64,000 nt of DNA from an uncultured Acidobacteriota bacterium (GCA_963761805.1 CAVXIV010000003.1:89627-153626); one strand, 5' to 3'. Positions 8,636-27,276 are shown, numbered from the stretch's first letter. Notes: generated from the sequence alone by a model not told the origin. Made by a program: numbers and translations.

Positions 8636-8663
8636 GCCCCAGGTTTCAACCTGGGGCGGGGAG
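8636..8663. repeat. 29-nt palindromic element, right copy (inverted relative to 3474-3504)
   Basis: ggtagccccaggtttcaacctggggcgg is the reverse complement of the element at 3474-3504. Confidence 0.6.
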
Positions 8664-8718
8664 GGCGGGGTGCCGCGCCGCCTCCGGACACCGCGCCTCC
8701 GGACGCCGGTCCCGGGAC

Positions 8719-8932
8719 CCGCCCGGAACGGGCGGAATTTGACTAGCCCGGCGCTTCAGCGCCGGGTAGGCGGTCCCCCCCAATTCTCATCCGCCCAGAA
8801 TGGGCGGGACCCAACCGTTCAGCCGGGTCGGACCGTCGTGTTCCGCCACCTTCGGGGTGGGGGATGGGGGGAGGGCGTCGGTGACCCGGCGCTGAAGCAC
8901 CGGGCTATTCAGATTCCGCCCATTCTGGGCGG
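8719..8932. repeat. MITE-like composite repeat, right copy (direct relative to 3573-3784)
   Basis: It has the same three sub-elements in the same order as 3573-3784: ccgcccggaacgggcggaatttgactagcccggcgcttcagcgccggg, then catccgcccagaatgggcgggacccaac, then cccggcgctgaagcaccgggctattcagattccgcccattctgggcgg. Identity to the left copy is roughly 85-90% by eye. Confidence 0.65.
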
Positions 8933-9125
8933 GCCTGAATGGGAGGGCGACGGTGTTCAGGCGGATGTGCCGGCCGGGGGCGGCGCGCCCTTCGAAGAGA
9001 CGCCTCGCCGTCCCCATGGCCTCCGCGAGGTGTCGTTGATCGTCTGAGGCGTCTCTACGGCCCTTCGGTGGAGGGGGGAGGTCATCGGATCGTTCTACGG
9101 CTCGGACCTCCTGTAGCATTCCTCC

Positions 9126-9878: not shown

Positions 9879-10069
9879 AGAAGCTACTTCCGGACGCCCG
9901 TAGCGCCCGGGCGGTACACTGAACAGCACAGAAAAACTTGCAGTTTCGCTCGGACCGCTGATTTCACGCCTCTGCGCACGCTCTTCTAGAACGCTGCGGG
10001 ATGGGCTACGATACGGGCCGCGTCGCGTTTCTACCCATCTTTTACAAGGAGAGTCGAGGTCACACCGAT

Positions 10070-11545: not shown

Positions 11546-13671
11546 GCACGGCGTTTTCCGATTGGGAGCTCGGACGCCGCGAAGGCGAGCTTCCCGACGG
11601 CTGGGCGACGACGACGCTCGGCGACATCGTCGTCCATCGCATCGGCGGCGAGTGGGGCGAGAGCCCGGAAACGGTGGCGGCGGACGATCCGGAGTACGTC
11701 CGGGTGCGCGTGATCCGCGGCACGCAGTTCCGGGACTGGGAGCGCGACAAGGGCTCGACGGCGGACGTGCGGGCGGTCAAGCGGTCGAAGCTGGCGAAGC
11801 GCCTGCTGGTCGAAGGGGACTTGGTGGTGGAGATCTCCGGCGGCGGGGCCAGCCAGCCGGTGGGCCGCACGTTGCTGATCGACGAGGAAGCGCTCCGCCG
11901 CGCCGGCATGCCGCTGATCTGCAGCAACTTCTGCCGTCTGGTGAGACTCCACCGCGAGGTCGATCCCGCGTACGTCCACCTGGTCCTTACGTTCCAGTAC
12001 CTGTGCGGCCGGTTCGACGAGTTGCAGACGCAGACGACGAACATCCGCAACCTGAATTTCGACGATTTCCTGGCGAACGTGATCCTGCCGTTGCCGCCGC
12101 TGGCGGAGCAGCGGCGGATCGTCGCGAAAGTCCGCAAGCTCCAGAAACCGGTGGGCACGGCTCGCAAGTGCCTCGCGAAGATGCCGGAGATCCTGCGGCG
12201 CTTCCGCCAGTCGGTGCTCGCCGCGGCGTTCGCGGGCCGGCTGACGGAGAGCTGGCGCGAAGGGCGCCCGCCGGCCGAGTCCCTGGAGGAGAAGCTGCGG
12301 CTGGCGTTCAAGACGCGCCGCGAGGCGTGGGAGATGGCGCGCGAGGAGGCGGAGGCTTTCGACCGCCGGGCGCCGCGCCGGCCGAAGAACCTGGAGCCCA
12401 CGCCGTGGGAGGCGCCGGAGCCGCTGGAGGAGCCGAAGACGCCGGACGGCTGGCTCCTCGTGGCGCTGCACGACGTGGTGCATCGCGCCCAGTACGGACT
12501 CTCCACCAAGGCGGACGCCAACGAGAAGACCGGTATCGCGATCCTGCGCATGGCGAACATCCAGGACGGCCGGATCGACACCTCGGATCTCAAATACATC
12601 CGGCGCAAGGGCCTGGACGTCCAGGGCTACATGGTGCGGCAGGGGGACATCCTGTTCAACCGCACGAACAGCCCGGAGCTGGTGGGCAAGGCCGCGGTGT
12701 TCGACGCCAGCCTCGAGGCGGTGTTCGCTTCCTACGTGGTGCGCGTGGAGTGCGACGAGCGGCTGATCGACAGCCGGTACCTGTGCTGGTGGATCAATTC
12801 GCCGTGGGGCCGGCGGTGGGCGCGCACGGTGCGCACGGAGAGCGTCAGCCAGTCGAACATCAACATTTCGCGGCTGGTGACGATGCCAGTGCCGTTCCCG
12901 CCCCTGGAGGAGCAGCGGCGGATCGTGGAGCGCATCGAGGCGTTTTTCGCCGACGCCGCGAGCGTCGAGGCGAAGGTGGCCTCGTCGGCGGAGCGGGCGG
13001 AGAAGCTGTGGATGACGATCCTGGTGCGGGCGCTGCGCGGTGAGCTGGTGCCGAACGAGGCGGAGATCTCCGGTCCCGAGGGCGGAGGCTTCGAGCCGGC
13101 GGCGGACCTGTTGGACCGGATCGTCGGGGAGCGGCTGGCTTCGCGGCCCGAGAGGATGGAAGCGGTGAGCCCGGAGGAGGGCGTCGCCGAGCCGATCCTG
13201 GCCGCCATCCGCCAGTCCTGCTGGGGCGCCGGCACGATGACCCGCGAGGAGCTGATCCGGAAGGTGGCGGTGCGGCTGGGCTGCCCGCGCTTCGGCAAGA
13301 GCATCCGGGCCCGGCTGGAGCGCCACGTGGAGGTGGCCCTGGCGCGGCGGATCGTGGAGGTCAAGGACGGCCTGCTGTGCGGCGCCACTCCGACCTTCGC
13401 GCGCTACGACTGGAACTTCCTGGTGCGGACGGTCCGCTCCCTGCTGAAGGACGGGGTGGAGCGCAACACCGGGGAGCTGATCAACGCCATGGCCGCCTAT
13501 CTGGGCTACGGGCAGGTCACCATGCCGATCCGCGAGCGCACGGAGCGGATCCTGACCTGGGCGTCCCAGAACGGGCTGGTGGAGATGCGGGAAGGGAAGG
13601 TCCAGCGCACCCCCGGGCTTCCCCCGGCCCCGCCTTTCCCCAACGATCCGGCGCGGCGGGGGCGGAAGTAG
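11542..13671 (+). CDS. hsdS: Type I restriction-modification specificity subunit with a C-terminal extension of about 200 aa
   Basis: The GTG start overlaps the hsdM stop (GTGA). There are two target-recognition halves, each followed by the conserved helix (LPLPPLAEQRRIVAKVRKL and VPFPPLEEQRRIVERIEAFF). The canonical HsdS ends near aa 505, and an extra helical region follows up to aa 709. Confidence 0.85.
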   Translation: MSTAFSDWELGRREGELPDGWATTTLGDIVVHRIGGEWGESPETVAADDPEYVRVRVIRGTQFRDWERDKGSTADVRAVKRSKLAKRLLVEGDLVVEISGGGASQPVGRTLLIDEEALRRAGMPLICSNFCRLVRLHREVDPAYVHLVLTFQYLCGRFDELQTQTTNIRNLNFDDFLANVILPLPPLAEQRRIVAKVRKLQKPVGTARKCLAKMPEILRRFRQSVLAAAFAGRLTESWREGRPPAESLEEKLRLAFKTRREAWEMAREEAEAFDRRAPRRPKNLEPTPWEAPEPLEEPKTPDGWLLVALHDVVHRAQYGLSTKADANEKTGIAILRMANIQDGRIDTSDLKYIRRKGLDVQGYMVRQGDILFNRTNSPELVGKAAVFDASLEAVFASYVVRVECDERLIDSRYLCWWINSPWGRRWARTVRTESVSQSNINISRLVTMPVPFPPLEEQRRIVERIEAFFADAASVEAKVASSAERAEKLWMTILVRALRGELVPNEAEISGPEGGGFEPAADLLDRIVGERLASRPERMEAVSPEEGVAEPILAAIRQSCWGAGTMTREELIRKVAVRLGCPRFGKSIRARLERHVEVALARRIVEVKDGLLCGATPTFARYDWNFLVRTVRSLLKDGVERNTGELINAMAAYLGYGQVTMPIRERTERILTWASQNGLVEMREGKVQRTPGLPPAPPFPNDPARRGRK

Positions 13672-13840
13672 GCCCTCACCTCCCGGCCTCCTCTCCCGAC
13701 CCCTCCCTCCCACCCACACCGGGAGAGGAGGAGAAGTTAGCCAAGAGAAAGGCACGGGGAAGCTTTCCTGACAAACCTTTCCCCCTCTCCCGGTGTGGGT
13801 GGGAGGGAGGGGTCGGGAGAGGGGGCCAGGGGGTGAGGGC
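13672..13840. repeat. inverted pair of GC-rich REP-like elements (R1/R2), a likely bidirectional terminator hairpin
   Basis: R1 (13672-13733) reads gccctcacctcccggcctcctctcccgacccctccctcccacccacaccgggagagg. R2 (13781-13840) is its reverse complement. The pair lies between the convergent hsdS and GNAT genes. Confidence 0.7.
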
Positions 13841-13852
13841 TCGGGCGGGGGC

Positions 13853-14308
13853 CTACTTCAGCCACTCGAACGTGTCGTAGTGCTCGCGGCTCATGCCGAG
13901 CTTCTCGTAGACCGCCTGCGCGGCGGTGTTCCGCTTGTCCACGTAGAGACGGATGCCCTTGAGATCCGGGTCGGCCTCGACGCGGCGGCGCAGGTGCTCG
14001 TAGAGGACGCGGTAGATCCCGCGGCCCCTCTCCTCGGGGATGACGTAGACGGACTGGATCCAGAGGATGACGCCGTTGCGCCAGTCGCTCCACTCGAAGG
14101 TGGTCATCAGGCAGCCGGCGACGCGGCCGTCGCGCTCGGCCACCCAGTAGGCGGCCTTGCGGGGATCGGCGAAGACGGCTTCGACGCCGGCCGTCACGGT
14201 GGCGAGGTCGAGCTCCAGGCCTTCGGTCTCCCGGGCCATGCGGCGCTGGAAGTCGACGAGGACCGCCGCGTCTTCGGGCCGGGCGGGGCGGACCACGGTA
14301 TCAGCCAA
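13853..14308 (-). CDS. GNAT family N-acetyltransferase
   Basis: 151-aa ORF with an acetyl-CoA binding-type segment IQSVYVIPEERGRGIYRVLYEHL and a GNAT-typical length. Confidence 0.85.
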   Translation of the reverse strand: MADTVVRPARPEDAAVLVDFQRRMARETEGLELDLATVTAGVEAVFADPRKAAYWVAERDGRVAGCLMTTFEWSDWRNGVILWIQSVYVIPEERGRGIYRVLYEHLRRRVEADPDLKGIRLYVDKRNTAAQAVYEKLGMSREHYDTFEWLK

Positions 14309-14567
14309 GGGGGGGCGTGTCCTCCGGGTGCAGAGCGGTCTGGAGACGGGCCTCGACTTCGGGCGCGAGCGGCGGGTCCGGGAGGGCGCGCACGGCCCGG
14401 ATGACGAGGCCGAGGTCGTGGAGCAGGCGGCGGCAGCCCTCGCAGCCGCGCAGATGCTCGCCGATCCGCTGCGAGCGGTCCTGACCCGACCAGCCTTCGA
14501 TGTACTCGGTCAGGTCCGCCAGGACCTCGCCGCAATGCAGGCCGGCGACGACCCGTTCATCGTCCAT
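14301..14567 (-). CDS. zf-HC2 type anti-sigma factor
   Basis: 88-aa ORF overlapping the upstream ECF sigma gene. It has an H-x3-C-x2-C motif (HLRGCEGC) plus an N-terminal HC pair. Confidence 0.7.
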   Translation of the reverse strand: MDDERVVAGLHCGEVLADLTEYIEGWSGQDRSQRIGEHLRGCEGCRRLLHDLGLVIRAVRALPDPPLAPEVEARLQTALHPEDTPPLG

Positions 14568-15126
14568 CGGCCTCTCCTTCCCTCAGCCTGGCGACCAGGC
14601 GCAGGCGGGCCCGGTGGAGGCGTGCCCGCACGGCGGCGTTGGTGAGGCCGGTCACGCGGGCGGCTTCGTCCGGCCCCAGCTTCTCGCGTTCGCGCAGGAT
14701 GAGGGCTTCGCGGTCCTCGGGCGCGAGCGCTGCCAGGGCCGCCTCCAGGCTCCGGGCGTCGACGGGCGGGCTGGCGGCTCCGTTGGGGCTGTTCCAGCCG
14801 GCGGCCCGGGCGAGGTCGCGCAGGGGCGTGGCGTCGGCCTCGCGGTCGCGGGGATGCCTCTGCCGGGCGGCGTTGTGGGCGAAGGCGAGGAGCCAGGAGC
14901 GGGCGGAGGGCTCGTCCCGGAAGCGGCCGGCGGCGCGCCGGGCGGCCTGGAAGGTGTCGCGGAGCACCTCTTCGGCGTCCGCGCCGTCGGGGAGCACGGC
15001 CCGCGCGTAGCGGTAGACCGCCGACTGGTGGCGATTCACCAGGCGATCGAACGCGGCGGCGTCGCCGGCCGTGAAACGGCGGAGCAACGTCTCGTCGCTG
15101 ATCCTCGGGTCGTCTGGATCGACCAT
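14557..15126 (-). CDS. ECF-type RNA polymerase sigma factor
   Basis: 189-aa ORF with a region 2 segment (FDRLVNRHQSAVYRYARAVL) and a region 4 HTH (EAARVTGLTNAAVRARLHRAR). Confidence 0.85.
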   Translation of the reverse strand: MVDPDDPRISDETLLRRFTAGDAAAFDRLVNRHQSAVYRYARAVLPDGADAEEVLRDTFQAARRAAGRFRDEPSARSWLLAFAHNAARQRHPRDREADATPLRDLARAAGWNSPNGAASPPVDARSLEAALAALAPEDREALILREREKLGPDEAARVTGLTNAAVRARLHRARLRLVARLREGEADGR

Positions 15127-15171: not shown

Positions 15172-15232
15172 CCCTCACCCCCGGCCCCCTCTCCCGACCC
15201 CTCCCTCCCACCCACACCGGGAGAGGGGGAGG
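15172..15232. repeat. GC-rich REP-like element (R3), single copy
   Basis: ccctcacccccggccccctctcccgacccctccctcccacccacaccgggagaggggg belongs to the same family as R1. Confidence 0.65.
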
Positions 15233-16148: not shown

Positions 16149-16334
16149 GCCCTCACCTCCCCGGCCCTCCTCTCCCGACCCCTCCCTCCCACACCACACC
16201 GGGAGAGGAGGGAGAGGTTAGCGAAAAGAAGCGGCTCCTCGAAGGGCTCCAGGGTTGAGCTTCTCCAATCCCCCTCTCTCCCGGTGGGGGTGGGAGGGAG
16301 GGGTCGGGAGAGAGGGGGCAGGGGGAGTGAGGGC
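16149..16334. repeat. inverted pair of GC-rich REP-like elements (R4/R5)
   Basis: R4 (16149-16218) and R5 (16270-16334) are reverse complements from the same family as R1-R3. They sit immediately after the stop codon of the S9 peptidase gene. Confidence 0.7.
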
Positions 16335-18847
16335 CTACTTCAGATGGGTCTCGAACAGCTTGTAGATCCGCCGGTACTCGTCGAGCCAGCTCGTGGGCTG
16401 GACGAAGGTGTGATCCTCGACGGGGTAGATGGCCGTCTCGAAGCTCTCCTTCTTCAGCTCGATGAGCTTCTGCACCAGCCGGACCGTGTCCTGGAAGAAG
16501 ACGTTCTGGTCCAGCATGGGGGCGCAGATCAGCAGCGGCTTCTGGAGGCCGGCGGCGTACTCGATGGGCGAGCTCTTCTCGTAGGCCTCGGGGTCGATCT
16601 CCGGGCGGTTGAGGATGTTGGCGGTGTACTCCTCGTTGTAGTGCGCCCAGTCCGCCACCGGCCGCAGGGCCGCGCCGGCGGCGAAGAGGTCCGGCTGGCG
16701 GAAGAGGGCCATGAAGGTCATGAAGCCCCCATAGGAGCCGCCGTAGACGCCGACGCGCTGGGGATCGACGTTCTTGTTCTTCACCAGCCAGGCGACGCCG
16801 TCCTCCATGTCCTCGAGCTCCGGGGTGCCCATCTGGCGGTAGATGGCCGTCCGCCAGTCGCGGCCGTAGCCGGACGAGGCGCGGAAGTCCATGTCGATCA
16901 CCACGTAGCCCTGGCGCGTCAGCAGGGTGTGGAACATGAACTCGCGGAAGTAGCTCGACCAGCCGTAGTGGATGTTCTGCAGATAGCCGGCGCCGTGGAC
17001 GAACATCACGGCCGGATAGGTGCGCGCCGGATCGAAGTCCTTCGGCGTGTAGACCCGCGAGTAGATCGGCCCCGCGCCGTGGGTGGAGGGGACGGCGACG
17101 GTCTCGGGCATCGTCCAGTCCTGGGCCAGGAAGAATTCGGTGCGGGTCCGGGTGACCTGCCGCGCTTCGGCGTCCGGCCGGTTGGGCTGCACGAACAGCT
17201 CGTCGGGACGGTTGATGGAGGAGGCGGTGACGAGGAGCCGGTCCTCGTTCGGCGACAGCACCGGCTCGCCGACCAGGCCGCCGAAGCCGGTGAGCCGCTC
17301 GGCCTTGGCGGTGGCCACTGCGACGCGCCAGACGTCGTACTTGCCCGGATGCTCGCGGTTGGCGACGTAGTAGATGTGCTTGCCGTCCCAGCTCCGCACC
17401 GGGCGCGAGACCTCGTACCGGCCTTCGGGGGTCAGCGGCCGGATCTCCCCGGTGCGGCCGGAGAGCGCGTACAGCCGCGAGTAGCCGCTCTCCTCGGAGA
17501 GGAACCAGAGCGTCTCGTCGTCCGGCAGCCAGCCCATCTCGTTGAAGTCCCAGTTGATCCACGCGGCGTCGGTCAGCCGGTGGCGGGGCGTGAGCTTGGC
17601 GGTGGCGGTGTCGAAGGTGGCGATCCAGCGGTCCTTGTTGTCGCGGGCGCGGAGCTGCACGGCGAGCCTTTGGCCGTCCTCGGACCAGGAGACGTCGGAG
17701 ACTTCCATCGGACGGACCTGGGCGGGCTCTTCCTTCTTCTCTTCCGCCTTCGCCTCTTCGGGCTTGGCTTCGCCTTCAGCCTGGGGCTCGGCCGCGGCCT
17801 CGTCCTTCTTTTCTGCTCGTCCTTCTTCTTCATGGCCTCCTTGCGGACCTTGGCGGCCTCGCGGAGGGCCTTGAGGGGATCGTCCTTGGAGCCGGGGAGC
17901 ACGGCGAGGTCGAGGTCGTGGCGCTCGTGCTTCACGAGGTCGAGCAGGATCACGGAGTGGGGGACGGGCTTGTCGATGCCCACCTTGGAGCGGACGTCGC
18001 GGACCTCGATGTGGCCGCTCTCGGTCACCCACTGGGGGAGCCTGGCGCGCTTGCTCTCCTCGGACCATTTGGGCGCGGTGACCACCAGCAGCCAGTCGCC
18101 GGAGGGGGAGAGGGCGGCGCGCTCGATGACGGCGTCCTTGCCCAGGTACCAGGTCTGGGGCGTACGCGTGGGGTCGTCCTTGCGCAGGGCGAGGTCCTCT
18201 TCGCGTTCCTTCTTCTCCTTCTCCTGCCGCTGGCGGATGACGTCGAAGAAGCGCGTCTGCTGCTCCTGGAGCAGGGTGGGCTCGTCCTTGTCGGCGGGGT
18301 CCTTGTCGAGCACGAGCCGGGCGGGCTGGGAAGTGAGCCCGGTCTCCAGGTCGTAGACGAAGACGTCGTCGCCGGACCGGAAGGTGACGCGGCGGTTGTC
18401 GGCCAGGAAGCGCGGGTCGTCCTCGTCCCCGTCGGTGCGGGTCAGTTGCCGCACGGCGCCGGTCTTCAGGTCCTTGACGAAGACGTCGCCGTGGCGCTCA
18501 TAGACCTTGCGTTTGCGGTCGCGGCTGAGCACGCCGCGCGAGTCTTCCTTCACTCTCTGGGCGGGCTCGATCAGGACCGTCTTGCCGGTGGCGAGATCGA
18601 CGCGGTAGAGGTCCATCCGCTGGTTGCCGATCCCCTCGCGCTGGCGCTCGTAGTAGACCGACCGGCCGTCGTCCGACCAGTAGGGGTTCTGGGGCGGATT
18701 CCCGATCCAATCCGGGTCGGCCATGATCTGCTCGAGAGTCAGCGCGGAATCGTTGTCCGCGGCGAGCGCCGGAGCCGCGGCCAGCGGCAGGGCCAGCAGG
18801 AGGCAGAGGGCTCCGGCGGTGAAGCGGTGTCGTGCGTTCGGAGTCAT
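16335..18847 (-). CDS. S9 family serine peptidase (DPP-IV/prolyl oligopeptidase fold), exported, with one apparent frameshift
   Basis: The N-terminal ORF 17573..18847 has a signal peptide and propeller region. The C-terminal ORF 16335..18068 has GGSYGG (nucleophile elbow) and a catalytic domain. The two join if one A is added in the A4 run at 17809-17812 (KKKDEQKK/KDEAAAEPQ). Confidence 0.8.
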
Positions 18848-18856
18848 TCGTAATCC

Positions 18857-20281
18857 TTATCGAGTAGCCGTCTTCTTCGGAGCCGCGAACCTGTCGCGGA
18901 TCCACTTCGCCACCAGGTCGAGCATGGCGGGATCCATGGTGACCTCGCTGGCCGCGTATTCGGCCGGGCTGCCGGTCTTGGCGGGCTGGAAGAGGTGGTT
19001 GAGGCCGGGCAGGCGGCGGATGGTCACGTCCGGGTTGCCGGCCTCCTTCAGCGCCTTTTCGATCTCGGGGATGTTCTGGTCCGCGATCACCTGGAGGTCG
19101 AGCTCGCCGTTGACGACCAGCACCGGAACCTTGACCTTGCGCAGGGCCGGCCGCGGGTCGTAGTCGAGGAAGTAGCGGAACCAGTTGGAGGTCGCCCTCT
19201 TCACCTGTGCGTCGATCATGTCGTCGCCGCCGGCCTGCTCCTCCGGGCTCTGCAGGGCCAGAGCCTCCTTGCTGAGTTGCCGCAGCTTGGCATCGCGGAC
19301 GGCGGGGTCCTTTTCGGTGCGGATGAGCTCGAGGCTCTGGCGCATGATCGCGTCTTCGCGCTTGATGTTCTCCTCCGGCATCCCGCCGGCGCGGGAGATG
19401 CGCTCGCTCTGGAGGGAGAGGACCTCCGCGCCGGGGACGCCGGTGCCCGCGAGCATCACCACGAAGGCCACGTCCGTGGACTGGCTGGCGGCGAGCGGCC
19501 CCACCACCCCGCCCTCGCTATGGCCCACGAGGCCGACGCGGTCCGGGGCGATCTTCGCGTGCTTTTTGAGGAACCGTACGCCGGCCAGAGCATCCTGCGC
19601 GAAGTCGGCGGTGGTGGATTCGTCGACGCTGCCGGTCGAGCCGCCGACGCCGCGGTCGTCCACCCGCAGCACGGCGATGCCGTTGCGGGTCAGGTAATCG
19701 GAGAGCACCAGGAACGGCTTGTGGCCCAGGAGCGCCTCATCGCGGTCCTGCGGGCCGCTGCCGGTGATGAGCAGCGCGGCGGGGAAGGGGCCGGGGCCCT
19801 CCGGGATCGTGAGCGTGCCGGCGAGCTTGATGTCGCCGTTGGTGTAGGTGACCTCTTCGGAGATGTAGGGAAGCGGCGGCTTGGGCTCCTGCGGCTTGCG
19901 CGCCACCTCGACGGCCTCGCGGCCCAGGCGGAACGGCAGCGAGGCGCTCCCCTGCGTAAAGGTGCCGCGGATGGCGCCGTTCTCCAGCGTGCCGTCGAAG
20001 GTCGGCGCGCCGGGGATGTTCGCGATGGCGAAGCGCACCTTGGAGCCCTCGACCGTGATCCCCTCCAGGGGCAGGTCCTTGGCGCCTTGCTGCGGGATGT
20101 CGATGTCCCCTTTCCAGGCGCCGTTCTCCCAGGTCAGGTCGACCATGACCTGGAGCTTCATCGAGGGGAGCTCGATCTCGCCCTCCCAGTGGCCCGCCGC
20201 CGGGGAATCGGCGGCCTGGACGGCACTGGGGACAGTCATGGGGACGAGGATCAGCAGACAGAGAAGAAGGATGGAACGCAT
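18857..20281 (-). CDS. exported alpha/beta hydrolase
   Basis: ATG at 20281 follows GGAGG. The protein has a signal peptide MRSILLLCLLILVPMTVPSAVQA and a GHSEGG nucleophile elbow. The upstream part of ORF 18857..21136 is Arg/Pro-rich shadow. Confidence 0.8.
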   Translation of the reverse strand: MRSILLLCLLILVPMTVPSAVQAADSPAAGHWEGEIELPSMKLQVMVDLTWENGAWKGDIDIPQQGAKDLPLEGITVEGSKVRFAIANIPGAPTFDGTLENGAIRGTFTQGSASLPFRLGREAVEVARKPQEPKPPLPYISEEVTYTNGDIKLAGTLTIPEGPGPFPAALLITGSGPQDRDEALLGHKPFLVLSDYLTRNGIAVLRVDDRGVGGSTGSVDESTTADFAQDALAGVRFLKKHAKIAPDRVGLVGHSEGGVVGPLAASQSTDVAFVVMLAGTGVPGAEVLSLQSERISRAGGMPEENIKREDAIMRQSLELIRTEKDPAVRDAKLRQLSKEALALQSPEEQAGGDDMIDAQVKRATSNWFRYFLDYDPRPALRKVKVPVLVVNGELDLQVIADQNIPEIEKALKEAGNPDVTIRRLPGLNHLFQPAKTGSPAEYAASEVTMDPAMLDLVAKWIRDRFAAPKKTATR

Positions 20282-20295
20282 TTCGGTCCTCCGTA

Positions 20296-23130
20296 TCAGA
20301 CGGGAGAGGCCGCGGGCCGCCGGCGGAGCCAGAACAGGCCGCCGAGAGCCGCGAACAGGAGAACGCCGCCGGCCAGGGTCCAGGCCCAGACCGGCAGAGG
20401 GGGAAGGGCGGGACCCCGGCGGCCGCCGGGCAGGGGCACGGCGTCGCCGTCGCCGAGCACGACGATGCCGGCCCAGGCGGCGGCGGGAGCGCCCTCTTCG
20501 ATCAGCTCGCGCTGGGCGGCGTGGGCGCTGGCGGCCACGCTGAGGCCCCGGCCGAGATGGTCGTAGAAACGGTCGAAGAATTCGGCGGCCTCGTCGTCGC
20601 GGAGCTTCCAGAGGCTGGCGACCACGGTGTGGGCGCCGGCCTGGAAGAAGGCGCGGGCGAGGCTCATCACGCCCTCGCCGCGCAGCACCGCGCCGGTATT
20701 GGTGCTGCAAGCGGAGAGGACCACGGTGCGGCCTTTCAGGTAGAGGTCGACGATCTCGCGGATCTGGAGCAGGCCGTCCTCGGCGGCGTCGCCGGGGGCC
20801 AGCAGGACGCCCGACCGCTCGGGGTTGGCCTCGTCGGTGACGGCATGGGTGGCGAAGTGGAGCAGCGCGTACTCGTGCAGCGGGGCGTGCTTGAGGAAGG
20901 CCTCGGTAGCCTTCTCCCCCAGGCGCCGCACGCTGCCGCCGCCCATATGGCTCACCACGGAGCGGCTCTCCTGGCGGGCGAAGGGGAGGGCCCCCAGGCG
21001 GTCCGTGGAGGCGAAGACGGCGGCCGAGCGCTCCATGGACGCGAGCGCCGTCCGGCCGTTCCCGCTGCCGGGCGGCGGCGGGTCCGCGAAGACGAGCGCG
21101 GGCGTGCGGGGGGCGGACGGCTTGTCCTCCTTCCATTCCAGCCAGAGCGTGGCGGACGGCGCCTGGCTCAGCCTGTAGCGGGCGGCGAGGGGCCGCGCCT
21201 CCTTGGAAGCCCGCAGGGCGCCGAAGGGGAGCTGGTGCAGCACGTCGTCCGGGATCAGGATCAGCCGCTCGATGCCGGGCGGGAGACCTTCAAGCGCCGG
21301 CTCCAGGAGCTTCCGGTAAAGGGCGATGGAGGGGGTCACCTCGGAGCTGTCCCGCCGGTTGAAGGTACCGTTGAACAGACGGACGGCCGACCTCAGCTCT
21401 CCCCGGCCGGGCAGGCGGTAGGCGCGGGCGCCCTGGCGGGTGACCACGGTCAGCCAGGAGCCGCCGGAGAAGTCCTGCCAGGGGTCTTCCCAGGGCGCGA
21501 TCTGGAAGGAGAGCAGGGCCTCGTTGGCGGCGAGGGCCTGCCGCACCTCCGGGATTCCGGACAGAGGCCGCTGCTCCGCCAGAGGGGGGGCTGCGCGGGC
21601 GAGCTGGTTCTGGATCTCTGCCTCTTCAATCTCCAGGTCGTTGAGATGCCGGACCGCTTCGGTCCTCTCGGCCGCGGGGAGATCGGGGTTCATGAGCCGG
21701 CGCTGGACGCCCGAGAGCTCCTCCCGGACGGCGGCGCGGCGTTGACGCAAGGGCAAAGCCGCCTCCGGCAAGGCCTTGGCGGCTTCCAGCGTGTCCAGCA
21801 GGGTGCGGGCGCGCATCCGTTCCGCCACCAGGAAGGCGCTGCCGATCCCCTCGCGGTTGCCGGCGAGCGCCGCCTCGATCAGGCGTCCGGAGAGCCAGTA
21901 GTAGTCTTCGGACCAGGCGGCGAAGGCCCGGGCCTGGTTGGTGGAGCTCGCCTGGAGCTCGCGAAGGGTCTCGATGGCTTCAAGAGCCAGGCGCGAGTCC
22001 CGGACCACCAGCTTGTAGGGATCGCCCGCCGCCCAGCTCACCCGCATCCGCTCCCGCCAGGCGAAGGCCATGGACCAGTAGTCCTTGGCCTCGCGGGCCA
22101 GCTCCAGGGATTCGGCGATCGCCTTGCGGGCGCGGGGAGGGTCTGTCGAGGCGAAGTGCCGGGCGAGAGCGTTCAGGCAGTAGCTCCGGTCGCGCGCGGT
22201 GTCGGCCGCCTCCAGGCAGGCCTCCAGATGCCGGTAGGCCTCCTCGCCGCTCAGCAGCGTGCCCAATTGCCAGTGCGCTCTGGCCTGGATGCTACGGTAG
22301 TCCGCCGCGACGGCGGCTTCCAGGGTGGCGCGGGCGAGGCGGATCACTTCCTGCCGGCGCTCTTCTGTCGGGATCTCCGCCGCCTCGTCCAGGACAGCCC
22401 GGGACATACCATAGCGGGCCTCGGCTTCTCCCGAGCGGTCCCCCGCGGCCACCGCCAGCTCCACCGCGCGGCGGAAGGCTTCGTAGCCTTCCCGGGAGCG
22501 TCCCAGGTCGACGCTGATGTTGCCCAGCATGTTGAAGCTTTCCCGCTTCGTGTAGTAGTTGTCGCTCTCGACGGCGGTGACGGTGGCGCGCCGGAGCAGG
22601 AGGTAGACCTGCTCGAAGTCGCGGCCGACGCTCCAGAGATGGCGGGCCTTGAGGATCTGGGCCCGCGCGACCGCTTCGGGGTGGCTCGCGGCCTCCGCCG
22701 CTTTGAGCGCCAGATCCGCCTGGGCTCCCGCGTCGTCGACCCGGCCCGCATTGAACAACAGGCGGTGGAGGTTGGCCCGGGCCAGGACCTCGCCCCAGGC
22801 GTCCTTGCGGGCCACGAAACCCTTGACGGCGATGCGGAAGAGCGCCTCCGCGCGCTCCCGGTCCCCCAGCTCGAGGATGCCGAGGAACAAGCTGGGCCAC
22901 GGGCTCTCCGGGTGACGCGACAGCAATTGCCGGAAGCGCGCCGCGGTCTCTTCCGGCCGCTGGAGTCTCTCTCCCACCTTGTCGTAGCACCGGGTGGTGT
23001 CCTCGCTTTCCGGCTGGCTGGCGGCGAGCTTGTCGCACGCGGCGAAGTCGGCCGGCTCGGCGCCTCGGGCCCAGGAAGGGAAAGAAAGCGCCAGGATGAG
23101 GAGGAGGAGAGGAAGAGCCCGGAGCATCAC
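20296..23130 (-). CDS. TPR repeat plus CHAT (caspase-like) domain protein, with signal peptide and C-terminal TM anchor
   Basis: 944-aa ORF with a long N-terminal TPR-like helical region. The CHAT His/Cys dyad context is present (LLHFATHAV and VVLSACSTN). The C-terminus has a hydrophobic helix (WAWTLAGGVLLFAALGGLFWL). Confidence 0.85.
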   Translation of the reverse strand: MMLRALPLLLLILALSFPSWARGAEPADFAACDKLAASQPESEDTTRCYDKVGERLQRPEETAARFRQLLSRHPESPWPSLFLGILELGDRERAEALFRIAVKGFVARKDAWGEVLARANLHRLLFNAGRVDDAGAQADLALKAAEAASHPEAVARAQILKARHLWSVGRDFEQVYLLLRRATVTAVESDNYYTKRESFNMLGNISVDLGRSREGYEAFRRAVELAVAAGDRSGEAEARYGMSRAVLDEAAEIPTEERRQEVIRLARATLEAAVAADYRSIQARAHWQLGTLLSGEEAYRHLEACLEAADTARDRSYCLNALARHFASTDPPRARKAIAESLELAREAKDYWSMAFAWRERMRVSWAAGDPYKLVVRDSRLALEAIETLRELQASSTNQARAFAAWSEDYYWLSGRLIEAALAGNREGIGSAFLVAERMRARTLLDTLEAAKALPEAALPLRQRRAAVREELSGVQRRLMNPDLPAAERTEAVRHLNDLEIEEAEIQNQLARAAPPLAEQRPLSGIPEVRQALAANEALLSFQIAPWEDPWQDFSGGSWLTVVTRQGARAYRLPGRGELRSAVRLFNGTFNRRDSSEVTPSIALYRKLLEPALEGLPPGIERLILIPDDVLHQLPFGALRASKEARPLAARYRLSQAPSATLWLEWKEDKPSAPRTPALVFADPPPPGSGNGRTALASMERSAAVFASTDRLGALPFARQESRSVVSHMGGGSVRRLGEKATEAFLKHAPLHEYALLHFATHAVTDEANPERSGVLLAPGDAAEDGLLQIREIVDLYLKGRTVVLSACSTNTGAVLRGEGVMSLARAFFQAGAHTVVASLWKLRDDEAAEFFDRFYDHLGRGLSVAASAHAAQRELIEEGAPAAAWAGIVVLGDGDAVPLPGGRRGPALPPLPVWAWTLAGGVLLFAALGGLFWLRRRPAASPV

Positions 23131-23173
23131 CCGTGAAGTCTACCGCAGCGCGGCAACCGGAGTGGAAAGCGAA

Positions 23174-23195
23174 GGGCGGCTCCGGAGAGCCGCCC
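23174..23195 (-). terminator. stem-loop after the twin peptide genes
   Basis: gggcggctc-cgga-gagccgccc is a perfect 9-bp GC stem. On the minus strand it is followed by ttcgctttcc. Confidence 0.45.
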
Positions 23196-23231
23196 TGTGT
23201 CTCTATGCGAGGGAGGCGAGAACCTGGCTGA

Positions 23232-23351
23232 TCAGCCCTTCGGGGGCGGCGGATCGGTGCTCGGAGGCGAGGTGCAGCAGGCCGGATTGGGATCCTCGGT
23301 CTCCTTGGTCTTCACCTTCTCGATCTTGGCGTCCTTCACTTTATTGCTCAT
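23232..23351 (-). CDS. 39-aa peptide MSNKVKDAKIEKVKTKETEDPNPACCTSPPSTDPPPPKG (not in the ORF track)
   Basis: ATG follows GGAGAAccgatc. The last 15 codons match those of the neighbouring 42-aa ORF with only synonymous differences. Confidence 0.6.
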   Translation of the reverse strand: MSNKVKDAKIEKVKTKETEDPNPACCTSPPSTDPPPPKG

Positions 23352-23406
23352 GATCGGTTCTCCTATTGCGTCCGGTTGATCTCTGGGATCGGGTCAACGC
23401 CGGGGA

Positions 23407-23535
23407 TCAGCCCTTCGGCGGCGGAGGATCGGTGCTCGGAGGCGAAGTGCAGCAGGTCGGGTCGTTCTCGCTGGAGCCGTCCTTCGTCTCGATCGTCGGG
23501 GCCGGCAGCGTCTGGTTCTGGGTCTCGTCGCTCAT
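23407..23535 (-). CDS. 42-aa peptide MSDETQNQTLPAPTIETKDGSSENDPTCCTSPPSTDPPPPKG (not in the ORF track)
   Basis: ATG follows GGGAGAcccgaaa. It is a paralog of 23232..23351 with the identical C-terminal tail CCTSPPSTDPPPPKG. Confidence 0.6.
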   Translation of the reverse strand: MSDETQNQTLPAPTIETKDGSSENDPTCCTSPPSTDPPPPKG

Positions 23536-23661
23536 TTTCGGGTCTCCCTGTGGCTTCTAGTTTCGATTGGATTCAGGTTTCGTTCGGGTCTCAGGTGTCT
23601 CTCTCGTTGTCTTCCAGGAGGTAGAACGAAGCCGGCCTCCCGATCCCCTCACTTGTCCTCG

Positions 23662-23687
23662 ATACGTCGCCACGATTTTTTTGTTTC
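23662..23687 (-). promoter_or_regulatory. candidate ECF-type promoter upstream of the twin peptide genes
   Basis: The minus strand reads cGAAAC-N16-CGTAT, close to the ECF-type consensus (TGAAAC-N16-CGTA). It lies about 125 nt upstream of ATG 23535. Confidence 0.4.
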
Positions 23688-23736
23688 GCCCGGCGCTCAC
23701 CGTAAGTCGTTGAGTTACTTAGAGGAAAAGCGGCAA

Positions 23737-23767
23737 CCCCCTCGCCGGCGGCGGCCGGACGAGGGGG
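23737..23767 (-). terminator. stem-loop after the anti-sigma factor gene
   Basis: The minus strand reads ccccctcgtccggcc-gcc-gccggcgaggggg followed by ttgccgcttttcc. Confidence 0.5.
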
Positions 23768-23788
23768 CGGACGGAGAGCGGGAGCGGC

Positions 23789-24460
23789 TTATTTCAACGG
23801 AGTGGTGAAGGTCGGCGAGCTCCGGCGGGTACCGTCGGGGAAGACGGCGTCGACCTGCCACAGGAGCGGGGTCCCCGGCGCGAAGCCGGCGAGGTTGCCC
23901 GCGGGGATGCGGTACTCCGTGGCGGTCTGCCCCTGGGCGGTGGCGATCACCTGGAGGTCCTCGGTGCTCACCTGCACGTCGTAGGAGGTGGCGCCGGGGA
24001 CCGGGGTCCAGCGCAGCACGGCTCCCTGGCGGGCCAGCGCCTGACCCTCGGGGAGGAGCGAGCGCACTTCCGTCTGCTCGACGTTGCGGTAGGTGGACTC
24101 CCGCGGGCCGACGCCCGACTGGTAGACGCCCACCGCGATGAGCAGCCCGGCCGCGATGGCGGCGGCCGCCGCAAGGGGACGCCACTGGCCGAAGCGGCCG
24201 ACGATCACCTTGCCGGGGGCGGCGGTCGCCGTGCGGGACGCCTCGCGCTCGATCTCCGCCGCGAGCCGCCAGTCCTCGGCGCAGGCGGCGCAGGAGGCTG
24301 TGTGGTCCAGCACGTCCCGCATCTGCTGAGGCTGCAGCTCACCGCGGACGCCCGCCCAGATCGTCTCCGGGGCCGGGCAGGTCTCCGGCGCCGGCGCCGG
24401 TCCCGCCGGGGCCTGGAACGCGGCGCGGAGTCTCGCGAAGTTGGTGGTGTCGTCGGTCAT
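23789..24460 (-). CDS. membrane anti-sigma factor (zf-HC2) with a periplasmic Ig/FN3-like domain
   Basis: Start is taken at ATG 24460 after GGAGcgacc. The protein has H-x3-C-x2-C (HTASCAAC), one TM helix (AAAAIAAGLLIAVGV) and a beta-rich C-terminal domain. Confidence 0.7.
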   Translation of the reverse strand: MTDDTTNFARLRAAFQAPAGPAPAPETCPAPETIWAGVRGELQPQQMRDVLDHTASCAACAEDWRLAAEIEREASRTATAAPGKVIVGRFGQWRPLAAAAAIAAGLLIAVGVYQSGVGPRESTYRNVEQTEVRSLLPEGQALARQGAVLRWTPVPGATSYDVQVSTEDLQVIATAQGQTATEYRIPAGNLAGFAPGTPLLWQVDAVFPDGTRRSSPTFTTPLK

Positions 24461-24679
24461 GGTCGCTCCTCTCTTCCTACTCATCCAAAACGGAATTGAA
24501 GACTCAAAATCTCCTCGGTCCGCCTGGCGCCTCCCAACTTCCGGGGCTGCCTGCCGGACCTCTCCGCGAAGAAGAACGTATCGGCGGTGTAAATCCCCTC
24601 ACCCTTCGTGCGTATAGAAGAGATCGCCGGTGAGGGGCTGGGGCCGCATCCTTCGTTCTCCAGGTAGGAGGAGGATGCT

Positions 24680-24790
24680 ATGAAGATCAAGACGAAGACC
24701 ACGAAGATCGAGTTGCCCTGGGTCCTGGCCAGCCTGCCGCTGTTCGCGCTGTTCGGGTTCCTGCTGGCCGGCATGGTGGCGCGGTTCTAG
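24680..24790 (+). CDS. possible 36-aa single-TM protein MKIKTKTTKIELPWVLASLPLFALFGFLLAGMVARF
   Basis: A strong AGGAGGAGGA lies 5 nt upstream of the ATG. The peptide has a basic N-terminus followed by one hydrophobic helix. It lies antisense between the sigma and anti-sigma genes, and there is no further support. Confidence 0.35.
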   Translation: MKIKTKTTKIELPWVLASLPLFALFGFLLAGMVARF

Positions 24791-25371
24791 GCCTCGATCC
24801 CCTTCGAGGTGAGGCAGCCGCGCAGGTCGGCCATCCCCCGGTAGACCAGGTTTTCCGCCTTCTTGGCGGTCCAGCCCATGAGCTTGCCGATGTCCGGCAC
24901 GCTGTGCCCCTGGAGGTTGAGGGTCACGGCATGGCGGCGGGGCGCCACCATGAGGCCCAGGCAGTCGCGGATGGCCCGCCCGATCTCACGGCCGGCCGAG
25001 GCCCGCTCCGGGTCGGGGCCGGGCGCGGCGGGATCGTAGGAGACCGCCTCCTCCTTGTCGCTCTCGCTTTCGAGGGAGACCTCCTGGCGGCGGCGCAGGC
25101 GGCGGATCTCGTCGATCAGGGCGCTGTAGGCGGCCTTGCGGAGGTAGAAGGCGGTGAACTCGGCGGTGCCTTCCTTCTTCCTCTGGATCTCCATCACCCG
25201 CATCAGCGCCACCTGGACGAGGTCGTCGGCGCGGTCCCTCATCCAGTGCGGGCAGACGCGGTCCACCGCCCGCACGAGGTCGCGGTGGAGCTGCTCGTAG
25301 TCCGTTGAATACTCCCTGGGTTTCTTCCCTGTATCCGTGATCAAGATCCGCTCCGCCCGAAATCGGGCCAT
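24787..25371 (-). CDS. ECF-type RNA polymerase sigma factor
   Basis: 194-aa ORF with a region 2 segment (DDLVQVALMRVME) and a region 4 HTH (VPDIGKLMGWTAKKAENLVYRGMADLR). Confidence 0.85.
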   Translation of the reverse strand: MARFRAERILITDTGKKPREYSTDYEQLHRDLVRAVDRVCPHWMRDRADDLVQVALMRVMEIQRKKEGTAEFTAFYLRKAAYSALIDEIRRLRRRQEVSLESESDKEEAVSYDPAAPGPDPERASAGREIGRAIRDCLGLMVAPRRHAVTLNLQGHSVPDIGKLMGWTAKKAENLVYRGMADLRGCLTSKGIEA

Positions 25372-25611: not shown

Positions 25612-27276
25612 ATGAACCATAGCGGAAGCTTTGGCGGGGAAGTCAATTACGAGTACATCATCCTCGGCGCGGGGCCCGCGGGCTTGCAGATGGGCCATCA
25701 CCTCTCGCGCGCCGGACGCAGCTACCTCATCCTCGAAGCCGGCGAGACGCCCGGCAACTTCTTCCGGCAGTTCCCGCGCCACCGCACCCTGATCTCCAGC
25801 AACAAGGTCTACACGGGTTTCGAAGACCCGGAGGTCAACCTCCGCTTCGACTGGAACTCGCTCCTCGACGAGGACGGCAACGACAAGCTGCTGTTCAAGA
25901 ACTACAGCCGCAAGTACTTCGCGCCGGCGGACGAACTGGTCCGCTATCTCTCCGATTACGCCGACCACCACGAGCTCAACGTCCGCTGCGACACGCGGGT
26001 CCTGCGCATCGAGAAGCCTCGCGAGACCCAGTTCCGGCTCCTGGACGACCAGGGCAACGCCTACTCCTGCCGGCGCCTGATCGTGGCCACGGGGGTGAGC
26101 AAGCCCTACGTGCCGCAGATCCCGGGCATCGAGCAGTGCGAGAACTACTTCGACGTCTCGGTCGATCCGGAGGACTTCGCCAACCAGCGGGTGCTGGTCC
26201 TCGGCAAGGGCAACTCGGCCTTCGAGACGGCGGACAACCTGATCCCGACGACGGCGATGATCCACGTCGCCAGCCCCAGCCCGGTGAAGCTGGCCTGGAA
26301 GACCCACTACCTCGGGCACCTGCGGGCCGTCAACAACAACTTCCTCGACACCTACCAGCTCAAGACCCAGAACGCCGTGCTCGACTGCGTCATCGAGCGC
26401 ATCGAGCGCCGCGAGGGCGTGCTGGCGGTCTCCGTGCGCTACAGCCACGCCCATGGCGAGACCGAGGAGCTGATCTACGACCGGGTGATCGTCTGCACCG
26501 GCTTCCGCTTCGACGACTCGATCTTCGCCGAGGGTTGCCGGCCCGAGCTGGTCATCAACAACCGCTTCCCGGCGCAGACCTCCGAGTGGGAGTCGATCAA
26601 CGTGCCGGGCCTCTACTTCGCCGGCACGCTCATGCAGGCGAACGACTTCAAGAAGCACAACTCCGGCTTCATCCACGGCTTCCGCTACAACGTGCGGGCG
26701 CTCCACCGGATGCTGGAGAAGAAGCACCACCGCCGCGAGTGGCTGGCCAGCCGCGAGATCGAGGCGACGCCGGAGGGCCTGCTCGAGGCCGCCCTCGCCC
26801 GGGTCAACGGCAGCTCGGCCCTCTGGCAGCAGTCCGGCTTCCTCCACGACGTGATCGTGGTGGACGAGGACTGGGACCACGCCGTGTACTACGAGGAGAT
26901 GCCGCTCGCCTACATCCACGACTGCGAGATCGGCCAGAAGAGCCACTACTACACGATCACGCTGGAGCACGGGAAGATCGCGGGGGATCCATTCAACATC
27001 CCGCGCAACCCCGAGCCGGGCAAGGCGGACGAGAGCGTCTACCTGCACCCCGTGATCCGGCGCTGGTGCGGCCAGCAGCTCATCTCGGAGAAGCATCTCC
27101 TGGAAGACCTGTTCGGCGAGTGGAAGAAGGAAGAGGCCCACATCGCCCCGCTCCGCTACTTCTTCATGGAGCAGCTCCTGGAGACGGTCGACCTCCACGT
27201 CCACCTGAACCTGGAAGAGGACCAGTTCGAGATCGGCATGGGCGAGCCCCGGCGGCCGATGCTGCGGGCGGTCTGA
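25612..27276 (+). CDS. FAD/NAD(P)-binding oxidoreductase (flavin monooxygenase-like)
   Basis: 554-aa ORF with an N-terminal Rossmann GxGxxG (IILGAGPAGL) and a second dinucleotide motif (VLVLGKGNSAFE). Confidence 0.75.
   Translation: MNHSGSFGGEVNYEYIILGAGPAGLQMGHHLSRAGRSYLILEAGETPGNFFRQFPRHRTLISSNKVYTGFEDPEVNLRFDWNSLLDEDGNDKLLFKNYSRKYFAPADELVRYLSDYADHHELNVRCDTRVLRIEKPRETQFRLLDDQGNAYSCRRLIVATGVSKPYVPQIPGIEQCENYFDVSVDPEDFANQRVLVLGKGNSAFETADNLIPTTAMIHVASPSPVKLAWKTHYLGHLRAVNNNFLDTYQLKTQNAVLDCVIERIERREGVLAVSVRYSHAHGETEELIYDRVIVCTGFRFDDSIFAEGCRPELVINNRFPAQTSEWESINVPGLYFAGTLMQANDFKKHNSGFIHGFRYNVRALHRMLEKKHHRREWLASREIEATPEGLLEAALARVNGSSALWQQSGFLHDVIVVDEDWDHAVYYEEMPLAYIHDCEIGQKSHYYTITLEHGKIAGDPFNIPRNPEPGKADESVYLHPVIRRWCGQQLISEKHLLEDLFGEWKKEEAHIAPLRYFFMEQLLETVDLHVHLNLEEDQFEIGMGEPRRPMLRAV

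Follow-up and report, generated by a model that had tools for sequence, protein, structure and literature searches.

The 64,000-nucleotide stretch of DNA analyzed here, from an uncultured Acidobacteriota bacterium (GCA_963761805.1 CAVXIV010000003.1:89627-153626), carries a cluster of genes for a sigma factor of the extracytoplasmic function (ECF) type, an anti-sigma factor, two small proline-rich peptides, a tetratricopeptide repeat (TPR)-CHAT protease, an alpha/beta hydrolase and an S9 peptidase. We refer to the whole stretch as the window, and all positions are window coordinates counted from its start. We found that the arrangement sigma, anti-sigma, peptide, CHAT recurs in other genomes, among them many of soil Acidobacteria, far beyond chance, which is not the case for the two hydrolases. 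The interpretation that we favor, with a probability of roughly 55%, is that these four parts make up an envelope module that resembles a split version of the Myxococcus xanthus DdvA/DdvS system, in which the peptides would be the main sigma-dependent product and a probable partner of the CHAT protease.

The conservation of the four-part unit was established from two sides. On the CHAT side, a profile of 26 CHAT homologues yielded 79 species-level genome loci, at 33 to 91% identity. Neighboring genes were identified by tblastn with the window proteins, and sigma and anti-sigma genes were counted in the 53 loci with sufficient flank. Both genes were co-directional with and upstream of CHAT in 38 of these 53 loci, and loci with all three genes include metagenome-assembled genomes (MAGs) labelled Myxococcaceae, Deltaproteobacteria, Steroidobacteraceae and Eisenbacteria; the anti-sigma homologues that accompany CHAT across phyla are 26 to 67% identical. 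Unsupervised clustering of the flanking open reading frames (ORFs) returned the sigma factor at 50 loci, the anti-sigma factor at 50, and, at 30, a convergent enolase-superfamily gene just after CHAT that is not in the window; these three were the only neighbors conserved widely, and the same clustering revealed no conserved maturase or exporter in the CHAT neighborhoods. A strict automatic rule for small ORFs that have a proline-rich tail and are preceded by a Shine-Dalgarno (SD) sequence picked out such an ORF upstream of CHAT at 31 of the 62 loci examined, compared with a single one of 602 control windows. Most of the loci that this rule missed among close relatives carry variants outside it, and when read by eye, nearly all loci with a CHAT protein at least 48% identical contain a peptide ORF. 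Nearly every Thermoanaerobaculia locus has an ORF of 38 to 53 amino acids, preceded by an SD sequence, between anti-sigma and CHAT. Both the peptides and CHAT match MAGs of this acidobacterial class, which also accounts for most of the 213 CHAT homologues. The closest relative, locus L001, is 91% identical and fully syntenic, and is therefore by itself weak evidence on function.

On the peptide side, a profile search returned about 129 clusters of stand-alone proteins of 35 to 81 amino acids, none with a Pfam domain or an informative name, and many of them, as judged by eye, on a contig equal in size to that of a CHAT match. Peptide homologues thus co-occur with CHAT and ECF genes in searches from both directions, the outcome on which the initial annotation had made its proposed link between these genes depend. 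Of four further contexts that were examined, two carry sigma, anti-sigma, peptide and CHAT in that order, one (L087) does so in fragmented form, and the last (L084) lacks CHAT. In L084 (JGI Ga0597068_0000076, 4381 to 8627), sigma, anti-sigma and peptide are followed by a convergent GH57 gene in the place of CHAT; the order recurs on a second contig from another sample, so the peptide can persist without an adjacent CHAT. In locus L082 (JGI Ga0207681_10000052, 4352 to 12120), sigma, anti-sigma, peptide and CHAT are followed by two small genes, for 58 and 57 amino acids, and by a second CHAT; here the small-ORF-plus-CHAT unit has been duplicated in tandem. Just upstream of the sigma gene of L082 lie genes for an ATP-binding cassette exporter, an Asp/Arg hydroxylase, a sulfotransferase and a 2-oxoglutarate oxygenase. 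Upstream of CHAT paralogues that are more distant there are different small ORFs, whose tails are also of the DPP or DPG type, and at the most distant loci the anti-sigma gene abuts CHAT with no peptide in between.

These data bear on the simplest alternative, that the genes are merely adjacent and share no function, which the initial annotation had kept as a fallback. That description suits the two hydrolases and the genes on the flanks. For the sigma, anti-sigma, peptide and CHAT genes it is scarcely credible, given the counts above: the four core parts recur across dozens of species-level genomes with their order, promoter motifs and terminator conserved.

Peptide 1 (42 amino acids, MSDETQNQTLPAPTIETKDGSSENDPTCCTSPPSTDPPPPKG; 23407 to 23535, minus strand) and peptide 2 (39 amino acids, MSNKVKDAKIEKVKTKETEDPNPACCTSPPSTDPPPPKG; 23232 to 23351, minus strand) had been described as twin proline-rich peptides. 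Both are real, each with a canonical SD sequence (AGGGAGA and AGGAGA, respectively), and they share the tail CCTSPPSTDPPPPKG, which contains an adjacent pair of cysteines that the description had overlooked. A protein identical to peptide 1 is present in the database, while peptide 2 is 97% conserved in L001, where it is unannotated, and has related entries (P0124 and P0125). Across the family the N-terminus is variable and hydrophilic and only the C-terminal 12 to 15 residues are conserved, in the form [CC or GD]-[T/A/V]-x-P-[P/G]-...-D-P-G-P-... or, more loosely, [CC or GD]-x-x-P-[P/G]...D-P-[G/P]-P..., as in CCTAPPDTDPGPIKP, GDAPPDPDPGPIKG and CCTVPGGGDPGPGGPTG. No other peptides of the family are as rich in proline as those of the window lineage (PPPP). 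The type of tail agrees with the CHAT tree, and differences between the tails of different loci concentrate at third codon positions. In the tails of L003 to L025 the stretch GAT CCG GGC CCG ATC AAG is almost invariant, at a CHAT identity of only about 60%, and it includes a GAT Asp codon that is presumably rare at a GC content of about 70%; the tail may be under constraint at the nucleotide level.

Neither Pfam nor NCBIfam contains a family that matches the window peptides or the longer small ORFs of the distant loci, and a HMMER scan with the four closest peptides against 1.84 billion representatives gave only 5 hits. The peptides belong to no Pfam, NCBIfam or PADLOC family, and the literature that we searched describes the fused DdvA type only. 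Three ideas on the origin or use of the tail were discarded. Stop read-through, selenocysteine insertion or a peptide-CHAT fusion was rejected because the stop codons (TGA, TAG, TAA) and frames differ between loci. Derivation from the N-terminus of the anti-sigma factor (PDxxCCTxP versus PDPxSCPxPE) was dropped because the hhalign pairing of that stretch was not significant (E=0.19, probability 0.3%), and mimicry of the CHAT segment ADPP[L/M/P]PG because the correspondence was weak and inconsistent.

Two conserved motifs, both of an ECF promoter type, lie ahead of the peptide genes. The first, P1, is a GAAAC-N16-CGTA element of the classical ECF pattern at 23663 to 23687 (minus strand), upstream of peptide 1. 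Among 35 peptide entries, 26 have it 122 to 167 nt before the ATG of the peptide, and regions upstream of sigma genes are essentially free of it. The 64-kb window contains two P1 matches against 0.12 expected. The other match (10007 to 10031) falls within the beginning of a gene for a type I methyltransferase, lacks a plausible downstream ORF and was taken as chance. The second motif, P2 (TGAGGGGAT-N12-TTCGTT; 23625 to 23651, minus strand), lies 116 nt before the peptide-1 ATG and scores 42.2 with its position weight matrix (PWM). In 25 aligned leaders its two blocks are invariant and their spacing is fixed, and it is found before peptide/CHAT units even where no sigma gene is nearby. P2 also occurs in the sigma/anti-sigma gap, about 110 to 150 nt before the anti-sigma start and often with a second, antisense copy. 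When the 64-kb window was scanned with the P2 matrix, exactly three sites exceeded the shuffle maximum, all of them in the cluster, before peptide 1, before the anti-sigma gene and before an antisense ORF of 36 amino acids described below. We considered that the 5' leader might instead contain an RNA element and rejected this: Rfam returned nothing, RNAalifold predicted no pairs in the 25 leaders, and a hand-picked stem around TTCGTT had pairs in 48.7% of cells versus 46.9% in shuffles. Since RNA structure has no support, we read the invariant P2 blocks as a promoter.

P2 was also seen away from the unit. It precedes a secreted S33/TAP-like hydrolase gene in L019 (389 to 415) and a fatty-acyl-AMP-ligase-type gene in L022 (5908 to 5934), and in L010 (12758) and L012 (12743) it precedes a second family of small ORFs (..VTVxYSVTPEENYAGPP..) downstream of CHAT. 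The P2 regulon may thus extend past the peptide/CHAT unit.

Between peptide 2 and CHAT lies an intrinsic-terminator-like hairpin (23174 to 23195, minus strand), GGGCGGCTC-TCCG-GAGCCGCCC followed by TTCGCTTTCC, with a folding energy of about -23 kcal/mol including flanks and a distance of about 45 nt to the CHAT start. The initial annotation had reported this hairpin and counted it against a link between the peptides and CHAT. The hairpin is real, but a strong GC hairpin with a T-rich tail is found at the same place in 33 of 35 peptide entries, at -17 to -33 kcal/mol and with differing stem sequences. Conservation across loci marks it as part of the design and not a boundary. The hairpin at 23174 to 23195 is probably leaky, and we infer that the terminator provides for high expression of the peptides and low expression of CHAT.

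An arrangement of this kind might also suggest that the small ORFs are cis-acting leader peptides, in which slow translation or termination at the Pro-, Gly- and Asp-rich end sets the level of read-through into CHAT and the product itself has no function. PPP, APP, PPD and DPP are slow-translation motifs, and one or another of them is present in many tails. Conservation confined to the C-terminal 12 to 15 residues with a varying N-terminus, the unusually conserved nucleotide sequence of the tail, including the rare GAT codon, and a terminator within about 10 to 35 nt of the stop in 33 of 35 entries would all fit. We nevertheless consider a leader function unlikely. The hairpin begins 9 to 33 nt after the peptide stop, mostly at least 16 nt, and at 16 to 33 nt it would probably be out of reach of a ribosome on the stop codon; some tails, such as CCTVPGGGDPGPGGPTG, lack Pro-Pro, and conservation extends to positions other than proline (CC or GD, D, G, K). 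In addition, the window has a tandem pair of peptide genes, the peptide is kept in L084 without CHAT, and loci differ in the stop codon and in the reading frame relative to CHAT.

The CHAT gene (20296 to 23130, minus strand) encodes a caspase-like cysteine protease of 944 amino acids. Signal peptides, transmembrane helices, topology and zinc motifs were here and throughout judged by eye from sequence. The protein has an N-terminal signal peptide, a TPR superhelix of about 450 amino acids, the CHAT domain (PF12770, residues 603 to 894, 197.8 bits, E=3.5e-58) and a C-terminal transmembrane helix followed by RRR. The dyad of His762 (HFATHA) and Cys808 (LSACS) is invariant in 26 homologues, and the protein also has conserved pairs of cysteines. 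Taken together, the short signal-peptide-like N-terminus, the Cys pairs and the C-terminal anchor suggest that CHAT should face outward on the inner membrane, beside the ectodomain of the anti-sigma factor. In an AlphaFold2 model the TPR part is predicted with a pLDDT of about 90 and residues 670 to 845 with a pLDDT of about 30. A Foldseek search with this model was dominated by TPR proteins, with the peptide-binding TPR of LGN/Pins on top and a craspase TPR-CHAT entry at rank 46. Membership in a defense system was rejected, as PADLOC was negative apart from one weak BovA-like match on the CHAT region (E=8e-6).

The sigma factor (24787 to 25371, minus strand; 194 amino acids) is an ECF sigma-70 factor (group 4) by its TIGR02937 score of 51.4 bits against a cut-off of 42.9. 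Its Pfam scores are marginally below threshold (Sigma70_r2, 23.7 against 24; Sigma70_r4_2, 22.9 against 25.7), and gene callers favor a TTG start at 25344, which would give 185 amino acids. The anti-sigma factor, by prediction a single-pass zinc-binding anti-sigma (ZAS) protein, is encoded at 23789 to 24484 (minus strand; likely ATG at 24460; 231 amino acids). Its zinc motif, C-x23-H-x3-C-x2-C, agrees with the N-terminal C/H-x23-26-H-x3-C-x2-C pattern of ZAS factors, was read directly as Cys36, His60, Cys64 and Cys67 and is invariant in 22 homologues; the Pfam zf-HC2 score is 19.5 bits, under the cut-off of 22.2. A hydrophobic stretch, WRPLAAAAAIAAGLLIAVGVY, is a candidate transmembrane helix and is followed by a C-terminal domain of about 100 amino acids, giving a predicted layout of cytoplasmic zinc motif, transmembrane helix and extracytoplasmic domain.

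In the module that we favor, an envelope signal would lead the membrane-tethered CHAT protease to act on, or together with, the outer domain of the anti-sigma factor, by site-1-type cleavage or by sensing, and the sigma factor would be freed. The freed sigma would drive transcription of the peptide genes at a high level and, through terminator read-through, of CHAT at a low level, with the two secreted hydrolases in the same transcript in this lineage. It would also act on the anti-sigma gene and thereby provide negative feedback. The peptides would most likely serve as a direct partner of TPR-CHAT, be it as ligand, pseudosubstrate or substrate. Such a partnership is suggested by the conservation of the tail up to the free C-terminus, by the co-duplication of a small ORF with CHAT, by the position of the peptide gene before the terminator, as would be expected if the peptide were substrate or ligand and CHAT the enzyme, and by the modelled TPR, which resembles the peptide-binding superhelix of LGN/Pins. 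More tentatively, and with considerable doubt on our part, the peptides could be dedicated partners of an extracytoplasmic caspase-family protease, in which case sigma, anti-sigma, peptide and CHAT would close a self-contained proteolytic feedback loop. Such partners could be a securin-like pseudosubstrate inhibitor or TPR ligand that acts through its conserved free C-terminus, or a pro-signal cut at the conserved Asp-Pro.

Several points weigh against the favored interpretation. All of the evidence is computational. The unit is incomplete at some loci, with sigma, anti-sigma and CHAT but no peptide in the distant L051, L054, L066, L074 and L075, with peptide and CHAT but no nearby sigma in L009, L011, L014 and L023, and with sigma, anti-sigma and peptide but no CHAT in L084. 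In front of the sigma gene itself we found neither P1 nor P2. No export signal was seen in the peptides, and because CHAT and the sensor domain of the anti-sigma factor are predicted to lie outside, contact between peptide and CHAT would need an export route. Fold-level claims on CHAT were dropped, as the model is unreliable in the catalytic half. We detected no sequence similarity of the CHAT protein to DdvA or to solved CHAT structures, and a PDB profile search gave TPR proteins only. Finally, the gaps of 14 and 9 nt that join CHAT, the hydrolase and the S9 gene in this lineage mean that the hydrolases may hold a locally acquired role.

Among known systems, DdvA/DdvS of M. xanthus is the closest in design, with a ZAS anti-sigma factor fused to a periplasmic TPR-CHAT part that has been proposed to be its own site-1 protease; DdvA-like fusions have been reported only in Myxococcota and one Comamonas (PMC11506125). 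Shared with the window are an ECF sigma factor, an N-terminal zinc anti-sigma domain and a TPR-CHAT part with a His-Cys dyad, which in the window is predicted to be extracytoplasmic; the one transmembrane segment of DdvA has a candidate counterpart in the window anti-sigma factor. However, DdvA is one polypeptide, whereas the anti-sigma factor (231 amino acids, with a small predicted ectodomain) and the TPR-CHAT protein (944 amino acids, with its own signal peptide and anchor) of the window are separate, so the window system is not of the DdvA type. It further differs in having one or two peptide genes and a terminator between anti-sigma and CHAT, and in its occurrence mainly in Thermoanaerobaculia. 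No CBASS or CRISPR genes were found in the operon, which is therefore not an anti-phage island in the style of DdvA. In type III-E craspase, Csx30, an inhibitor linked to the ECF-like CASP-sigma, is cleaved by the TPR-CHAT protease Csx29 (PMC10028731). As is proposed for the window, a TPR-CHAT protease is coupled there, genetically and functionally, to an ECF-type sigma factor, through cleavage of the sigma inhibitor. Unlike the window system, craspase is cytoplasmic, RNA-guided (Cas7-11) and CRISPR-linked, and Csx30 has 565 amino acids compared with about 40 in the peptides. The window CHAT is not Csx29, as it scored 34.4 bits with model NF041237 against a cut-off of 300, and no cas genes were present among the ORFs read around the cluster.

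In the RseA/DegS/RseP system, the single-pass anti-sigma factor of sigma-E has an outer domain that is cleaved by DegS, a serine protease with a PDZ domain that is tethered to the membrane on its periplasmic side; C-terminal peptide motifs, those of outer-membrane proteins, activate DegS. By comparison, the candidate protease of the window belongs to the caspase family and has a TPR region, and the operon itself encodes the candidate peptide. Separase, a TPR-like and CHAT-type protease, is held by securin, a small disordered pseudosubstrate that runs along the helical domain and the active site. Separase and securin differ from the window proteins in being eukaryotic and cytoplasmic or nuclear, and binding of peptide to CHAT in the window is conjectural.

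The tail of the cluster was examined in the same manner. The initial annotation had described seven co-directional genes, all on the minus strand, with gaps of 14 nt between CHAT and the hydrolase and of 9 nt between the hydrolase and the S9 gene. Our ORF coordinates (CHAT stop at 20296 and hydrolase ATG at 20281; hydrolase stop at 18857 and S9 ATG at 18847) agree with this, its domain assignments (ECF sigma, anti-sigma, CHAT, alpha/beta hydrolase, S9) were borne out by Pfam and NCBIfam profile scores or, for the anti-sigma factor, by the zinc motif, and the N-termini of all three hydrolases are signal-peptide-like, as it had stated. By profile matches the secreted alpha/beta hydrolase (18857 to 20281, minus strand) is S15/S33/EstD-like as well as S9-like, and the secreted S9 serine peptidase (16335 to 18847, minus strand) is DPP-IV-like, with a Peptidase_S9 score of 162 bits, a DPPIV_N match and the motif GGSYGG. 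The S9 peptidase had been given as a single gene. We found it split by a frameshift into ORFs at 17573 to 18847 and 16335 to 18068; the shift lies near 17810 in a Lys/Glu-rich low-complexity linker, where the window has 2 nt more than L001, whose protein is intact (841 amino acids). Either the assembly is in error at an A-rich run, or the gene has recently become a pseudogene.

Among the 79 CHAT loci, hydrolase and S9 genes follow CHAT only in the 91%-identical L001/L017. In a scan of metagenomes anchored on the hydrolase (63 loci, 31 to 71% identity), CHAT, sigma, anti-sigma or peptide genes were found at none of the 63 loci, and the hydrolase-S9 pair occurred only in L088, without CHAT. Because their linkage to CHAT is limited to one near relative and absent from the reverse loci, the two hydrolases are, as judged from gene content, lineage-specific passengers, that is, recent additions to the operon that do not belong to the core. 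Of the peptide module under an ECF switch put forward in the initial annotation, the conserved unit of peptides, CHAT, sigma and anti-sigma therefore stands, while the roles given to the hydrolase and the frameshifted S9 peptidase are unsupported.

The specific form of that proposal, in which CHAT, hydrolase and S9 peptidase jointly cut or cyclize both peptides into a secreted product under ECF control, now appears quite improbable. In its favor, the genes are almost contiguous with no terminator between them, and the families are suggestive, since the hydrolase matches X-Pro dipeptidyl-peptidase S15, the S9 protein has a DPP-IV-type propeller and the lineage's peptides have the highest proline content of the family; a P1-like motif also precedes hydrolase(-S9) genes in L088 and L099, and P2 precedes the S33-type hydrolase of L019. 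The narrow and one-sided linkage just described and the frameshift stand against it, as do peptides without an export signal next to three enzymes predicted to be secreted, a family in which the tail and not the leader is conserved, and the lack of a conserved exporter. S9 prolyl-oligopeptidases such as PCY1 and POPB act as macrocyclases of ribosomally synthesized and post-translationally modified peptides (RiPPs), and the window likewise combines an S9-family enzyme with Pro-containing small peptides. The window enzyme, unlike these, is of the DPP-IV/Dpp5 type, predicted to be secreted, frameshifted and not conserved with the peptides. With no conserved maturase or exporter nearby and no NCBIfam or Pfam match to a precursor family, the cluster does not qualify as a RiPP cluster.

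The P1-like motifs of the two closest metagenomic relatives, GAAAC-N16-CGTA at 4014 to 4038 in L088 and at 1604 to 1628 in L099, lie about 75 to 110 nt upstream of the alpha/beta hydrolase gene. They are only a hint that the hydrolases are ECF-regulated too, with about one chance match expected in the 461 kb searched. A REP-like sequence, CTCTCCCGACCCCTCCCTCCCAC, is present in five exact copies (13691 to 13713, 13799 to 13821, 15189 to 15211, 16170 to 16192 and 16290 to 16312) and nowhere else in the 64-kb window. The copies sit within intergenic palindromic units of 50 to 75 nt, by the 3' end of the S9 gene and by DUF1206, second-sigma and GNAT genes. Repeats flanking the hydrolase/S9 block fit a local rearrangement.

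ECF sigma/anti-sigma pairs are among the commonest bacterial signaling devices, and for most of them we know of no trigger or site-1 protease. DdvA is, to our knowledge, the only TPR-CHAT case studied, with its signal and substrate still not known. In the literature that we searched, coverage of which was incomplete, we found neither these peptides described nor any ECF module whose CHAT protein is separate. If the peptides were indeed dedicated partners of the protease, they would represent an undescribed way of gating an ECF sigma factor, one that implies an export route for leaderless peptides. Anti-sigma factor, protease and candidate peptide are separate small genes in many genomes, which opens each interaction to recombinant testing. 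The analysis also yields a family of small proteins, unannotated and comprising about 130 clusters, together with a sharply defined promoter motif that can serve to map the regulon in Thermoanaerobaculia, an abundant soil class from which our searches returned MAG and metagenome sequences only. Tight gene spacing by itself was misleading here, as the hydrolases are passengers.

The sigma and anti-sigma genes do not overlap and are separated by about 300 nt, with promoter-like motifs on both strands inside. On the minus strand, a P2-like motif, GGTGAGGGGATTTACACCGCCGATACGTTC (24567 to 24607; PWM 26.2), lies about 110 to 120 nt before the anti-sigma start; strict P2 matches are found 113 to 149 nt before the anti-sigma ATG in L005, L006, L016, L019, L021, L022 and L056. 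On the plus strand, TGAGGGGCTGGGGCCGCATCCTTCGTT (24631 to 24657) matches the strict P2 pattern, scores 22.9 against a shuffle maximum of 14.8 and points at the 36-amino-acid ORF and at the 3' end of the sigma gene. This ORF, MKIKTKTTKIELPWVLASLPLFALFGFLLAGMVARF (24680 to 24790, plus strand), is antisense to the cluster and encodes a putative membrane peptide; it has the strong SD sequence GGAGGAGGA, and the P2-type motif lies 49 nt upstream. The peptide is 94% identical in L001 and was predicted as a gene on a Logan contig. We rejected it as a general component, as it was found in the window lineage only, and it is uncertain whether it belongs to the system. Antisense P2 copies are also present in the sigma/anti-sigma gap of L006, L007, L016, L019, L039, L048 and L056, which lack the 36-amino-acid ORF; the motif might therefore give rise to an antisense RNA directed at the 3' end of the sigma gene. 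Downstream of the anti-sigma gene is a terminator-like hairpin with CTTTTCC (23731 to 23747, minus strand), where a longer stem, CCCCCTCG...CGAGGGGG, can also be read.

Two neighboring regions were noted. Divergent from the sigma gene, a FAD-dependent oxidoreductase gene of the Pyr_redox_3 type (25612 to 27276, plus strand) is syntenic in at least 13 Thermoanaerobaculia loci, which is probably local synteny. Just 3' of the cluster, a second set of minus-strand genes (13853 to 15126) encodes an ECF sigma factor (14557 to 15126), a short zf-HC2 anti-sigma factor (14301 to 14567) and a GNAT acetyltransferase (13853 to 14308), an arrangement that is kept in L001.

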